Of a DNA stretch of 64,000 nucleotides, positions 56,635 to 61,364 are shown piece by piece (positions within the stretch are counted from its first letter, which is position 1; each line of letters opens with the position of its first letter). The stretch is from Escherichia phage vB_EcoM_G4507, in sequence record NC_054919.1, one strand, 5' to 3'. The notes beneath the pieces are model-generated. The model worked only from the letters and a program-made list of their open reading frames with translations. It made no database searches and was not told the origin of the DNA. A program made the translations under genes and the position numbers.

Positions 56635-56638
56635 CAAT

Positions 56639-56656
56639 GGGGACCTTTCGGTCCCC
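56639..56656. terminator. bidirectional terminator between gene 54 (+) and ORF 56663..56953 (-)
   Basis: GGGGACC-TTTC-GGTCCCC hairpin flanked by ATATTTTTATTT. Confidence 0.7.
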
Positions 56657-56662
56657 ATATTT

Positions 56663-56953
56663 TTATTTACGGAATGAAATGAAAGCAGCAACTGAAGCAA
56701 CTAAACTGTCTTCAATATAAACTTCAATTTTTACCGGAGCTTCTGACTCAAATTTACCTGTTACTACACCCTGAAAAATACTTTCAGTCTGTTCTGGCTT
56801 TGAAAAATTTTCAGAAGGAAAAATTCCGAACTTTTTATCTGTTCCAAAAATTTTGATAAATTCATCGTAAACTGCTTCATTAAAAGCATTATCAGCAGGA
56901 ATAACGCCTTCAACTACAAGTTCTTGACCTAAAAAGCGCAAAGAAGATTTCAT
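56663..56953 (-). CDS. hypothetical protein, 96 aa, downstream of alt genes
   Basis: Track ORF; ATG 56951-56953 with GAGGA RBS; own early-type promoter at 56985-57013. Confidence 0.5.
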   Translation of the reverse strand: MKSSLRFLGQELVVEGVIPADNAFNEAVYDEFIKIFGTDKKFGIFPSENFSKPEQTESIFQGVVTGKFESEAPVKIEVYIEDSLVASVAAFISFRK

Positions 56954-56984: not shown

Positions 56985-57013
56985 ACTATAACACAACACG
57001 AGGGACTTGTAAA
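56985..57013 (-). promoter_or_regulatory. early-type promoter upstream of ORF 56663..56953
   Basis: Minus strand TTTACA (57008-57013) - 17 nt - TATAGT (56985-56990); -35 overlaps the stop of the alt-family gene. Confidence 0.5.
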
Positions 57014-59071
57014 CTACATCTTGAACTTTTTAGACATTCCGTTGATGTTAACCAAAGAAGCTAAGATTTGAGAAACTTCGTTTTCCTCTTCTTTTGATTC
57101 TTCTACAAGGAATTGATTAAATCCAGCCATTGGACGAACTTCACCAGTTTCCATTAGATGGTCGCCATCATATACTGATTCTTCTAATTGTTCAGAAGGA
57201 GGAACGATTGTACCTTCGATTAGATACTTGTTATAAGCAGTTTCTTTCATAAAGTAAGTACTTACTTTATTAATCTTCAGTAAAATTCCACGTGGTAGAA
57301 TAACTTCAGCTTCTGACGGAAATCCTGATAAATGACCCGGAACGATAACTTTGATTCGCTCAGCTCCTTTAATTACCATACCCACGCTAGTTTCAGCATC
57401 TTCATTAGCATATGTAGAATGACTACCCATATGCATCAAATCTTCTGCATCAACGGAACCTTCTCCTTCACCAGAAAATACTGCGCCGGAATCATCTAGA
57501 GCCATATAGTTTTTACCATGCTCACCGAAGATATTTGGTTTAAGCGATGTGGATACGAAGTTCTTGAAATAGAACATTTTATTTTCAATGTTATGACGCA
57601 AAGTTTTAAAGGTAACTTCTTGTCCACGGTAAAGTGTAGTTCCTGGAGGAAGAACTGAACCTTTAGCGAATGCAGAATCAAGCGTCTCAATATGTTTAAT
57701 AGCTCGTTCCATATATTCTTCACGGGTAGAATCTGGTTTACCCAAAAGGAACGAGTTCATTTCAACATATGAATCTGCACAATAATCTTCAATTACATCA
57801 GATTCAGCTTGAGTTAATCCTTTTGGAGTTACTTCAGTGCTTGCGTATTCATATGCCTGAGCAGCAGATTCATTAATCAATTTATAAATGCCATTCATGA
57901 CAAATTGAATAATAGCTGTCTTTTCATCTGGCGTAGCTTTAGAACCTTTAACCAAATCATTGATAATTTTCTTAATAACATCAAAGCTATTAGAAATATT
58001 AATATCAGCAAGATCGCTTAAAATTTTATCAGTCTTATAATCAAAGAATTCTTTATTCTTTAAATATTCTTGAGAACCTTGATATGTTATATCGCTCTGT
58101 AACTTGATAGATGGATCACGTAAACGTGCATGGGCTAATGCAATATGATTTCGGAAGCTTTCGAGTTCATAATCACTAGATTTAAAACGAGAAGCGCTTC
58201 TCATACCGCCTATAGCTCCTTTGCTGAAGTTTGAACCAATTTGAATAACGCCAGAGTTCATTGGTCCTTCTGCTTTATACACCGGAACTTTAGATTCAAA
58301 CTCTTGATATTTCTTAGCAGCGAAGCTATCACCCTGAAGTGAAGCATCAACAGTAGAATATTGAGCTTGTGCTGCTAATCGACGACTAATTTTAGTTTTC
58401 TGAATAACAGCTTGGTCCGTGCGCTTATCATTTTCTAAAGCAATAGAAGCAGCAACAGCAACAGCTTTAGGAACAGCATTACCTGTTTTAACATCTACAT
58501 AAACATCACCAACCTTTGATTCAACTTTTGTGAATAACTCAGTTGAAATAGGAGGTACACCTGGAATGTCTTCTAAATTGGCATTTTTACGATAAACCAT
58601 AATATATGCGTACTTTTTATCATAATCCCAGATTTCCTTTAAAAGAACATATCGACCTGCTCCTTTAGTACGTACTAAACGGTCAGCAATAACTTGCATT
58701 TGACGAGCAGCGCCATTTGTTTTACTCTTTAGTACGCGGAATAAGCATGCATCAATTTTATACTGTTTCATTGTTTGAAGAGCAGTATCAAAAACAGCGT
58801 TAATGACGCCAATTGGATTTCCACCCAAGTTTCTAAGTTTAACCAGTGATAATTTCTCGTTGACACCTATCATTACGATATGCATCATTTTATCGCCCGG
58901 CTTAACGTTTTTATTTGTATCACCTCCAGAGGTGTATGTACAAAATCTAAATCCAGGAAGCACGCTTTCTTCGCCGGCTTGAATAGCAAAAATTTGAGGT
59001 ATTTTATGCTTAGGATTTAAGTTAACAACCGGCGCCGAAGCGCCGTCAAATAATTCTGTAATAAGTTCCAT
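57014..59071 (-). CDS. Alt-family ADP-ribosyltransferase paralog (downstream copy)
   Basis: Track ORF 685 aa; N-terminus MELITELFD.. and first ~250 aa similar to the upstream copy; C-terminal ART-like R / STS / ExE motifs (LYRGQ, FVSTSL, EAEVILPRG); AAGGA RBS. Confidence 0.8.
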   Translation of the reverse strand: MELITELFDGASAPVVNLNPKHKIPQIFAIQAGEESVLPGFRFCTYTSGGDTNKNVKPGDKMMHIVMIGVNEKLSLVKLRNLGGNPIGVINAVFDTALQTMKQYKIDACLFRVLKSKTNGAARQMQVIADRLVRTKGAGRYVLLKEIWDYDKKYAYIMVYRKNANLEDIPGVPPISTELFTKVESKVGDVYVDVKTGNAVPKAVAVAASIALENDKRTDQAVIQKTKISRRLAAQAQYSTVDASLQGDSFAAKKYQEFESKVPVYKAEGPMNSGVIQIGSNFSKGAIGGMRSASRFKSSDYELESFRNHIALAHARLRDPSIKLQSDITYQGSQEYLKNKEFFDYKTDKILSDLADINISNSFDVIKKIINDLVKGSKATPDEKTAIIQFVMNGIYKLINESAAQAYEYASTEVTPKGLTQAESDVIEDYCADSYVEMNSFLLGKPDSTREEYMERAIKHIETLDSAFAKGSVLPPGTTLYRGQEVTFKTLRHNIENKMFYFKNFVSTSLKPNIFGEHGKNYMALDDSGAVFSGEGEGSVDAEDLMHMGSHSTYANEDAETSVGMVIKGAERIKVIVPGHLSGFPSEAEVILPRGILLKINKVSTYFMKETAYNKYLIEGTIVPPSEQLEESVYDGDHLMETGEVRPMAGFNQFLVEESKEEENEVSQILASLVNINGMSKKFKM

Positions 59072-59074
59072 GAT

Positions 59075-61126
59075 TTATCCTTGAACGAACTTGTAAGGCA
59101 TGTTTGTAATATCTATGCAAGACGCAATAATTCCAAGAGATGATTCTACTTTCTGTTTAACATTTGATGAAACAAATGATGCAAAGTCAACTCTATCTTC
59201 TATATCACCTGTCATTGTAACTACTTCGCCGGTTTCCATTAAACGGTCACCGTCATAAATTACTGATTCGGTGAGTTCTTCGGTGGTCATAACTTCAGCT
59301 TGAATAAGCTTGTTGTTAGTTTTGACTGTTCCATCATTGTAAGATGCATCAGTTATTTTATTAACTTTGACCATTAATCCACGTGGCAAAATGACTTCCA
59401 TTTCATTTGAAGGCGCTAAACTTCCACCGGGTAAAACAACATTGACTTTATCAGCCCCAGTAATAACCCATCCAATTCCGACTAAATTATCGCTAGAATT
59501 AACAAGCCCTTCATCATTTTTATCGATAGAAATGTTTAGACGCTTTTCATCTGGTAAAACACCAACAGCTGAATCAGTCATCCAAGTACCAAAAATGTTT
59601 GGATATAATGATGTTGATACAAAATTTCTAAAATAAAAAACTCGATTTTTTACCATTGCTTCGTATATTGAAGGTAACATTCGTTGTGAACGATACAAAG
59701 TAATACCTTTTGGTAATCGTTCACCATTTTTAAAGGCTGAATCTAAATTATCAATAGCTTTTTCTATGTCAGATGCTGTCAAAATACTTGTACGCTCATC
59801 TGGATTATATAATCCCAAAAGAGCATTATTTATGTCTACATATCCTGAACCTACGTATTCACGAATTCCGCGTTTTTGTGCTGGTGTGTATTTAGATGAA
59901 TCTTTATTTTCGACTATAGGATGTAATGACCATCCAGCTGTAAGAGCATATCCACGTAATTCTCTTCGAATAATCTTTGTTTTTATTGCATTCCAAGAAT
60001 TTTGTACTAACTCATTTGCAGCATCTTGGTTTAAATGCGAATGTTTGTTAATATTTCTTTCAAACCAAGCACCTTTATATTTTTCTAAAGTATTATCGAC
60101 GATAGAAGCAATAGTTTCTAAAGTTTTTATTGAAGTAATAGATTCTTTTCGTAATTTTTCTAAAGCTTTATTTTTTATTTCTGCATTAATAATGGATTCT
60201 TTATCTTCAGGAATTATAGAAGCTTCTCTGAATGCCATCCCAGCTGTAACACTGCTAAGAGCATTCTCTAGTGCAAATCCTGAAGTAGAAATTACCGTTA
60301 ATTCATTAGAATCAGAAATTAAAGGCGCATCAGCGGGTTTATTTAATTCTGCTGCTGAAGCCTCAAATTTTTGAAACATCGGTGTTTCAAATCTAGAAGA
60401 TTCCAATGACTGACTTTGTGCAATTGCTCTACGGGAAATTTTAACTTTAACGATTACAGCTTGGTCAGAACGTTTATCATTTTCTTGTGCAATAGATGCT
60501 GCAATTGCCTCATTTTTGGTTACTTGAGCTCCGGTATCTTTATTGATATAAACATCACCGACCTTCGATTCAACTTTAGTAAAGAGCTCGGTACTAATTT
60601 CCGGAACTCCTGGAATGTCTTCTAGTGATACATTTTTGCGATGTATAAGAATATATGCATACTTTTTATCATAATCCCAGAGTTCCTTAAGAAGGACGTA
60701 TCTGCCACCTGAACGACTACGGATAAGTCTATCAGCAATAACTTGAATTTGTCGAGCTTGACCAGCGGTTTTAGACTTAAGAATACGAAGCATACAGGCA
60801 TCAATTTTATACTGACGCATTGTTTGCATCGCAACAGTAAAAACTGAATTGATATAATTAATTGGGCTTGGACCAAGACCTTTTAATTTAGCAATTGAAC
60901 CTTTAGCAGTTAATGTAAAAGGAACAATATGCATCATTTTATCGCCCATCTTTAAATCGCGATTAGTATCACCTCCAGATGTATAGGTACATAAACGAAA
61001 GCCTGGTTGTTCAATTGCATCATCAACATGAACTGAAAAAATTTGCGGTATTTTCTTCTTTGGATTTAAGTTTGTAATCGGAAGAGTAGTATCTTCGTCA
61101 AATAATTCTGTAATAAGTTCCATCAT
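59075..61126 (-). CDS. alt: ADP-ribosyltransferase Alt (packaged, RNA polymerase-modifying) - upstream copy
   Basis: Track ORF 683 aa; MMELITELFDEDTTLPITN.. as remembered for T4 Alt; C-terminal R / STS / ExE motifs (LYRSQ, FVSTSL, EMEVILPRG); late promoter TATAAATA at 61147-61154. Confidence 0.8.
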   Translation of the reverse strand: MMELITELFDEDTTLPITNLNPKKKIPQIFSVHVDDAIEQPGFRLCTYTSGGDTNRDLKMGDKMMHIVPFTLTAKGSIAKLKGLGPSPINYINSVFTVAMQTMRQYKIDACMLRILKSKTAGQARQIQVIADRLIRSRSGGRYVLLKELWDYDKKYAYILIHRKNVSLEDIPGVPEISTELFTKVESKVGDVYINKDTGAQVTKNEAIAASIAQENDKRSDQAVIVKVKISRRAIAQSQSLESSRFETPMFQKFEASAAELNKPADAPLISDSNELTVISTSGFALENALSSVTAGMAFREASIIPEDKESIINAEIKNKALEKLRKESITSIKTLETIASIVDNTLEKYKGAWFERNINKHSHLNQDAANELVQNSWNAIKTKIIRRELRGYALTAGWSLHPIVENKDSSKYTPAQKRGIREYVGSGYVDINNALLGLYNPDERTSILTASDIEKAIDNLDSAFKNGERLPKGITLYRSQRMLPSIYEAMVKNRVFYFRNFVSTSLYPNIFGTWMTDSAVGVLPDEKRLNISIDKNDEGLVNSSDNLVGIGWVITGADKVNVVLPGGSLAPSNEMEVILPRGLMVKVNKITDASYNDGTVKTNNKLIQAEVMTTEELTESVIYDGDRLMETGEVVTMTGDIEDRVDFASFVSSNVKQKVESSLGIIASCIDITNMPYKFVQG

Positions 61127-61146: not shown

Positions 61147-61154
61147 TATTTATA
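61147..61154 (-). promoter_or_regulatory. late promoter TATAAATA upstream of alt
   Basis: Minus-strand TATAAATA ~20 nt upstream of ATG 61126. Confidence 0.55.
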
Positions 61155-61159
61155 AAATT

Positions 61160-61177
61160 AAAGGCCCGAAGGCCTTT
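61160..61177 (-). terminator. hairpin between ORF 61176..61364 and the alt late promoter
   Basis: AAAGGCC-TTCG-GGCCTTT palindrome overlapping the stop codon of the 62-aa ORF. Confidence 0.45.
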
Positions 61178-61364
61178 AATAATCTAGTGGTAAGAGAGTA
61201 CGGTATATTTCAAACTTTGGACCTTTTTCATAGGCATCAAATGTTTCTGTGAATTTATTATAAGCATATGCATCTACAAATTCGAGAATGACTTGTGATA
61301 CAGAAGTAGAAACATCTCCACCTTCTTTTTGAGCAATGACAATTGTTTCTAAGTAAGCTTTCAT
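61176..61364 (-). CDS. hypothetical protein, 62 aa
   Basis: Track ORF between gene 30 and alt; start overlaps gene 30 stop. Confidence 0.45.
   Translation of the reverse strand: MKAYLETIVIAQKEGGDVSTSVSQVILEFVDAYAYNKFTETFDAYEKGPKFEIYRTLLPLDY

Follow-up and report, generated by a model that had tools for sequence, protein, structure and literature searches.

We analysed a 64,000-nucleotide (nt) stretch of the genome of Escherichia phage vB_EcoM_G4507 (NC_054919.1; hereafter the window), in which two paralogous genes of the Alt family of ADP-ribosyltransferases (ARTs) lie head to tail on the minus strand. The upstream gene, copy A, is alt (59075..61123, 682 amino acids (aa)) and carries the T4-type allele; the downstream gene, copy B, is alt2 (57014..59071, 685 aa), called alt.-2 in phage RB32 and Alt2 in the BASEL phages. 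Both minus-strand open reading frames (ORFs) and the 3-nt spacer between the stop codon of copy A and the start codon of copy B (TAA-ATC-ATG on the coding strand) are as described in an earlier, sequence-only reading of this DNA. That reading had also given both proteins the start MELITELFD, which holds for copy B and for copy A as annotated, though not for the longest ORF of copy A: this ORF (59075..61126, 683 aa from the first ATG) opens with ATGATG and reads MMELITELFD. T4 and RefSeq annotation place the start of copy A at the second ATG (61123), giving 682 aa and MELITELFD, and the Shine-Dalgarno sequence GAGAGG lies 5 nt from that codon.

Are both copies ADP-ribosyltransferases? Against the Pfam family PF03496 (ADP-ribosyltransferase exoenzyme, ADPrib_exo_Tox, Alt/VIP2 clade; gathering cut-off 23.4 bits), copy A scored 125 bits (3.1e-36) and copy B 71.9 bits, both far beyond chance. 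PHROG 802, 'Alt-like RNA polymerase ADP-ribosyltransferase', spans the two proteins end to end (copy A 1-682, E = 2.6e-262; copy B 1-685, E = 2e-256). PF26846 (Tevenvirinae_ADPRT) was not reported for either copy in the Pfam scan used here; it is precomputed for P0001, a protein 99% identical to copy B, and for other relatives. The catalytic motifs are LYR476-478, STS503-505 and E574-M-E576 in copy A (catalytic R478, S503/S505 and E574/E576) and LYR480-482, STS507-509 and E587-A-E589 in copy B (catalytic R482, S507/S509 and E587/E589), and R482, S507, S509, E587 and E589 are invariant in an alignment of 20 diverse family sequences. When each ART domain was aligned with HMMER, the catalytic Arg of CDTa and BECa lined up with its Arg, and the catalytic E-x-E of these two and of iota toxin with its E-x-E. 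Full-length copy B gave no match to PDB sequences at E <= 0.01, and the isolated ART domains gave matches that were weak, yet correctly aligned. In the R-S-E class of ARTs, an E-x-E motif marks arginine on proteins as the target. Together, the family scores and the retained R / S-T-S / E-x-E motifs support the assignment of both genes to the Alt family and to the R-S-ExE class, as the sequence-only reading had proposed; the pairwise alignment that it had suggested as a check found no copy without catalytic glutamates.

The two proteins are 42% identical over their full length (BLASTP, E = 2e-157), and this identity is distributed unevenly: 68% in residues 1-235, ~19% in residues 236-420, 35% in the ART domain and 46% in the C-terminal tail, which bears out the proposed conserved N-terminal part and divergent middle. 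AlphaFold models of both copies are of moderate confidence (pLDDT, the predicted local distance difference test, 71-73) and predict an ART fold in each. In the model of copy A (pLDDT 71), an alpha/beta domain (~15-195) is followed by linker helices (203-238), an all-helical middle (~250-410), the ART domain and a disordered tail. Copy B is predicted to have the same architecture as Alt, with an alpha/beta domain at the N-terminus, then helices in the middle, then the ART domain. The middle regions are nearly unalignable in sequence and show a similar succession of helices in the models; they look like two divergent forms of a single domain and not like insertions unrelated to each other. With the middle of copy B (aa 236-420) as query, an exhaustive search of representative sequences returned 0 matches and a search for homologous proteins returned one 112-aa fragment. 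These failures are not evidence of uniqueness, because two JS10-type Alt proteins (P0011 and P0012) that are 46-48% identical to copy B in the middle domain were also missed by both searches.

What are the counterparts of the two copies in T4? Copy A is 98.4% identical to T4 Alt (NP_049811) at the aa level, and copy B is 41-42% identical to it. The small T4 proteins Alt.-1 and Alt.-2 (NP_049810 and NP_049809) are 95-96% identical to residues 1-56 and 62-116 of copy B, respectively, and T4 is collinear with the window in blastn apart from 57034-58723, which it lacks. Alignment of T4 with the window and across the junction revealed two lesions in T4: (i) a 1-nt deletion in an A-run, a frameshift that splits alt.-1 from alt.-2; and (ii) a deletion of ~1.69 kb (57034..58723 of the window, minus strand) that ends at 9-bp direct repeats, CTAAAGAGT and CTAAAAAGT, and leaves T4 without residues ~117-679 of copy B. 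The T4 RefSeq record itself attributes alt.-1 and alt.-2 to an old duplication of the first part of alt. Because of the remnant homology, the two lesions and this note, copy B is the intact gene and T4 has the derived, damaged state. Thus, copy A is the ortholog of T4 Alt, and copy B is the intact form of T4 alt.-1/alt.-2.

Copy B shows the marks of a working gene. Its ORF is intact at exactly 685 codons in all eight genomes sampled, its pairwise ratio of nonsynonymous to synonymous substitution rates (dN/dS) is 0.02-0.05 with dS up to 0.28, and this low ratio holds alike for its N-terminal, middle, ART and C-terminal parts. Purifying selection on copy B is strong, and a pseudogene reading was rejected on the dN/dS values and the intact ORFs. 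In phage sb1 copy B is split, likely through a sequencing error because gene 48 is split in the same record too.

Apparent recombinants of the two copies were also found. P0005 and P0006, two proteins from metagenomes, each join a copy-A N-terminus cleanly to a copy-B body, with crossovers at about nt 541-570 and 650-665, and on the P0005 contig a lone alt gene lies between alt.1 and alt.-3. In Logan assemblies, single hybrid alt genes with two different crossovers lie at L011:5001-7055 (SRR24155011) and L012:5001-7061 (SRR19633722); in SRR24155011 the locus has no alt gene besides the hybrid. Assembly chimeras are an unlikely source of P0005 and P0006 given their different, clean crossover points and the shortness of exact matches between copies A and B, which reach 28 nt right at the start and no more than 22 nt anywhere else. 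The hybrids probably arose by unequal recombination between the tandem paralogs, via their conserved N-terminal segments. A further sequence, P0003, looks like a short conversion tract.

How common is the tandem pair? The 4.8-kb region is 99.8% identical to that of vB_EcoM_G4498 and relatives, and the window therefore belongs to Tequatrovirus. The segment absent from T4 was present at >=80% coverage in 400 of the 408 matching phage records, including T2, RB32, RB68, ime09 and PP01; related phage records number roughly 530 overall, of which ~400 contain it. By tblastn, copy B was found at >=80% identity in 401 records, and about 400 records carry Alt2 at 95-100% aa identity. Relatives of Alt occupied 1782 separate places in 1220 records in the same type of search, so that multiple copies are frequent, and Dhakavirus QL01 has three. 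The second gene has also been annotated repeatedly: the RB32 record names alt.-2 ('apparent insertion in alt.-2; similar to alt'), the RB68 record notes alt.-2, and the BASEL phages Bas35, Bas36 and Bas37 carry an 'ADP-ribosyltransferase Alt2'. The alt.-2 of RB32, RB68 and ime09, the Alt2 of Bas35, Bas36 and Bas37 and the gene of T2 are the same gene as copy B (98-100% aa identity) in the same tandem arrangement. In print, alt paralogs in T4, RB49 and 44RR were listed by Nolan et al. 2006 (PMC1524935), and a 2026 paper (PMC13600099) describes two Alt paralogs, 43% identical, in a Tequatrovirus, with the same speculation as the sequence-only reading, that the two enzymes could have different host targets.

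The tandem alt-alt2 pair is thus the norm in Tequatrovirus, because the copy B segment occurs in 400 of 408 matching records and has been annotated again and again; it is already annotated, named and described in print. This answers with a yes the question, left open by the sequence-only reading, of whether the arrangement is usual in T4 relatives, and removes the novelty that the reading had implied: the pair is ordinary, and T4 itself holds a deleted remnant of the second copy. Two findings had been named in advance as fatal to the idea, a copy without catalytic glutamates and a standard arrangement already described; the glutamates are present in both copies, and the second finding is very nearly what the records contain.

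Within the genus, alt itself is dimorphic, with T4-type (682 aa) and T2-type (697 aa) alleles. Between the two alleles, aa 1-235 do not differ (100% identity) and the C-terminal tail is 99% identical, while identity falls to 34% in the helical middle and to 65% in the ART domain; the divergent part corresponds to 59330-60390 of the window (copy A aa ~245-600) and to L003:1491-2556 of T2. The alt body is of T4 type in 173 records and of T2 type in 321, and Alt2 is 98-100% conserved in the same phages. This dimorphism has the look of a cassette that was exchanged while the conserved modules at either end stayed in place. Most of the Alt2 phages named above pair it with a T2-type alt (697 aa), whereas the window has a T4-type alt; the alt genes of Bas35 and Bas36 are also of T4-type length. 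In vB_EcoM_G4500 (MK327945.1; L015:468-2693), the copy-A gene has a 59-codon insertion consisting of a repeat of YKGAWFERNINKHSHLNQ followed by FFFFFFFFFLLCGFLFFFFKQKTAYEMAVGLVGSEMCIRDR. Its poly-F ... GSEMCIRDR string presumably represents a translated sequencing adapter or poly-T artefact, which it resembles, and the insertion is probably an assembly error of the record and not biology.

We then considered signals for expression. A pattern search detected a T4-type late promoter, TATAAATA (61147..61154, minus strand), 23 nt ahead of the start codon annotated for alt, and this is the sole T4 late-promoter motif in the alt/alt2 region. Ahead of it, between alt.1 and alt, lies a terminator-like GC-rich hairpin, AAAGGCCTTCGGGCCTTT, with a T-run after it (61160..61177, minus strand), at a position where a terminator is annotated in vB_EcoM_G4498. 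Copy B has its own Shine-Dalgarno sequence, AAGGA (59078..59082, minus strand), embedded in the final codons of copy A (CAAGGATAAATCATG), and a ribosome-binding site is annotated at this place in phage Ge15. Since the stop of copy A and the start of copy B are 3 nt apart, this layout suggests that their translation may be coupled. At the other end, a bidirectional intrinsic-terminator hairpin, also annotated in vB_EcoM_G4498, separates alt.-3 from gene 54 (56637..56658). Because of the sole late promoter, the flanking terminators and the Shine-Dalgarno sequence of copy B, alt, alt2 and alt.-3 may well form one late transcription unit ended by the 56637-56658 hairpin.

Signals for delivery are present in both proteins. 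In T4, the protease gp21 cuts Alt at ITE-6 and LTE-619 to yield a mature protein of 68.2 kDa, of which ~40 copies are present per head (Ali et al. 2017, PMC5694885). Copy A carries both motifs, ITE at residues 4-6 and LTE at residues 617-619, and the fragment between them has a computed mass of 68.2 kDa. In copy B, the first nine residues (MELITELFD) are identical to those of Alt, with ITE at 4-6, and LEE at 629-631 aligns with the LTE-619 site, giving a predicted mature protein of 69.1 kDa. E6 and E631, together with YDGD, E641, G643-E644 and the terminal K-F of the acidic C-terminal propeptide, are invariant in the 20-sequence alignment. The prohead-protease LxE motif that the sequence-only reading had seen at both N-termini is thus, as I-T-E, the gp21 site mapped in T4 Alt (PMC5694885), and both enzymes would be packaged, and trimmed by gp21.

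The pair occupies the family-typical position, between gene 54/alt.-3 and alt.1/gene 30, on the strand opposite the baseplate genes. Gene order in the window is 29, 48, 54 (plus strand), then alt.-3, copy B, copy A, alt.1 and 30 (minus strand), so that the alt genes are flanked by the baseplate/tail-tube genes 29/48/54 on one side and the DNA ligase gene 30 on the other; the order around alt is identical in T4 and vB_EcoM_G4498. The last gene of the cluster, alt.-3 (56663..56953, minus strand; 96 aa, DUF5498), encodes a protein 100% identical to T4 Alt.-3, C-terminal extension mutants of which escape the CmdTAC defence by blocking CmdA degradation (PMC11618068). A sigma-70-like promoter with an extended -10 (TTTACA-17-TATAGT, 57013..56985) lies between alt2 and alt.-3. 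The 5' neighbour of alt, alt.1 (61176-61364, minus strand; 62 aa), matches Pfam PF24647 'Phage blade protein' (E = 1.9e-29), and its stop codon overlaps the terminator-like hairpin ahead of the alt late promoter.

Published work offers some experimental hints. In the literature, arginine ADP-ribosylation with NAD+ has been demonstrated for T4 Alt only, with one alpha subunit of RNA polymerase and other host proteins as substrates; a paper on injected anti-restriction proteins (PMC12373910) does not mention Alt. According to a HIDEN-SEQ preprint (bioRxiv 10.1101/2025.11.20.689424), T4 Alt contributes to the evasion of a Mokosh type I defence, and the Alt allele of Bas37 cannot replace T4 Alt in this role. 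The transposon figures for Bas37 in the supplement of that preprint show insertions under-represented in Alt2 and not in Alt: in Alt2 (bas37_0032, 2058 nt), 116 of 164 TA sites were hit (saturation 0.71, 'Intermediate', mean count 44.5), and in Alt (bas37_0033), 164 of 179 (saturation 0.92, 'Non-essential', mean count 203.6). As far as these supplementary figures go, the under-representation points to a contribution of Alt2 to fitness on E. coli K-12.

What, then, would the two enzymes do? Most likely, the window encodes two functional Alt-type arginine-specific mono-ADP-ribosyltransferases, the T4 Alt ortholog and an intact Alt2, both of which would be expressed late, packaged and injected. 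We infer co-transcription of the pair, and packaging, processing, enzymatic activity and distinct targets for Alt2, along the following lines. Both genes would be transcribed late from the single TATAAATA promoter, Alt2 being translated from its own Shine-Dalgarno sequence; both proteins would enter the prohead core through their shared N-terminal signal and alpha/beta domain (68% identical), and gp21 would trim each of them twice, behind ITE-6 and at the conserved LxE near the C-terminus (LTE-619 for Alt and LEE-631 for Alt2). On infection of the next host, both would leave the head together with the DNA and use NAD+ to ADP-ribosylate arginines of host proteins. Alt and Alt2 may recognise different substrates at this step, because the helical middle (19% identical) and the STS-ExE loops are the parts that differ most; from sequence, two enzymes with different targets are plausible.

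Several observations weigh against this scheme. Virion proteomics, an activity assay or a target list for Alt2 was not found in the searchable literature, and both AlphaFold models reach only pLDDT 71-73, with the substrate loops at low confidence. Alt2 is dispensable on laboratory hosts, as T4 is without most of the gene; phage 'sutha' retains only the final 38 codons of copy B, and on one metagenomic contig a single gene, an A/B hybrid, stands in place of the pair. Because copy B is lost or truncated in T4 and sutha and replaced by a single hybrid gene on the P0005 contig, it is dispensable under some conditions, and strongly conserved where present. Moreover, insertions in Bas37 alt are neutral in the supplementary figures, although polarity on alt2 would be expected if the promoter is shared; either the transposon reads out, or Alt2 has another promoter, or a truncated Alt2 is harmful.

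Could Alt2 be active without being delivered by the virion, acting late in the producing cell, or with only a minor fraction packaged? The lack of proteomic support for Alt2 in heads in our literature searches would fit, and T4 already has ARTs that are not packaged, ModA and ModB (PMC5512222). We nevertheless consider this unlikely, as Alt2 retains MELITELFD with ITE-6, an N-terminal domain 68% identical to that of Alt, an LxE aligned with the C-terminal site of Alt and, in its tail, the motifs YDGDxLMETGE / ...KF, and the pattern search showed no promoter for it besides the late one ahead of alt. That Alt2 is instead a redundant duplicate becoming a pseudogene, as happened in T4, is largely refuted and highly improbable. 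Its losses or truncations are independent (T4, sutha, possibly sb1) and T4 grows well in its absence; set against this are the low dN/dS in all four regions with dS up to 0.28, the 685 intact codons of the sampled genomes, the conservation at 95-100% aa identity in about 400 records, the invariant catalytic residues and the scarcity of Bas37 Alt2 insertions in the supplementary figures.

Alternatively, Alt2 could serve mainly in counter-defence, modify a non-protein target such as nucleic acid, or RNAylate proteins as ModB does, instead of adjusting host transcription in the manner of Alt. The two very different alt alleles within one genus are a pattern typical of arms-race genes and would favour a role in defence evasion. 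However, alt2, unlike alt, is almost invariant across phages (98-100% aa), which is not an arms-race signature, and its E-x-E motif points to arginine on proteins; two sheets of the Bas37 supplement show no significant conditional effect for Alt2 (log2 fold changes of 0.11 and 0.19; q = 1; bioRxiv 10.1101/2025.11.20.689424). We regard these alternatives, taken together, as quite unlikely. Alt2 is conserved and under selection, and it is probably injected.

A bolder proposal, which we advance tentatively and at somewhat less than even chance, is that Alt2 is a second capsid-delivered ART with host targets of its own, maybe more important than Alt in natural T-even phages. Alt2 may matter more because it is nearly invariant, because the Alt body is swapped between two alleles and, in the figures of the preprint's supplement, because Bas37 Alt2 insertions are under-represented. 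Classical T4 biology would have missed Alt2 because laboratory T4 carries only a broken stub: the reference phage is a deletion variant at this locus, and knowledge of 'the' injected ADP-ribosyltransferase comes from a phage without the second one. If the proposal is true, conserved N- and C-terminal modules around a divergent helical and ART cassette could be a general delivery chassis for injected effectors. Genome annotation is little affected: the pair is the usual state in Tequatrovirus, and public records already name its members Alt and Alt2/alt.-2. The targets of Alt2, once defined, would extend what is known of how T-even phages take over their hosts, modestly but genuinely.

How does the pair compare with known systems? 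T4 Alt has the same length, neighbours, late promoter and ITE-6/LTE-619 sites as copy A. With copy B it has the whole architecture and all catalytic residues in common, and differs from it in the helical middle (~19% identical) and the ART domain (35%). T4 alt.-1/alt.-2 occupy the genomic position of copy B and are split and truncated in T4, whereas the gene is intact in the window. The T4 internal proteins IPI-IPIII, which bear a capsid-targeting sequence, resemble Alt-type proteins in that gp21 cuts a short propeptide with a terminal (L/I)xE from their N-terminus (PMC5694885, PMC9026906). They are present at ~360 copies per head, against ~40 for Alt-type proteins, which are enzymes and, unlike IPI-IPIII, also lose a C-terminal propeptide of roughly 55-65 residues. 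ModA and ModB of T4 are, like Alt and Alt2, R-S-E class ADP-ribosyltransferases of the same phage group (PMC5512222); by description, they are set apart as small, early-expressed, non-packaged enzymes encoded elsewhere in the genome, and as devoid of the N-terminal packaging domain and the helical middle domain of Alt and Alt2. Finally, Vis, C3bot, VIP2, CDTa, iota Ia and Certhrax share the catalytic fold and the R / STS / ExE triad with copies A and B. At 14-25% identity, these bacterial C3-like and binary-toxin ARTs differ from the phage pair in being secreted toxins with other delivery domains and eukaryotic targets.

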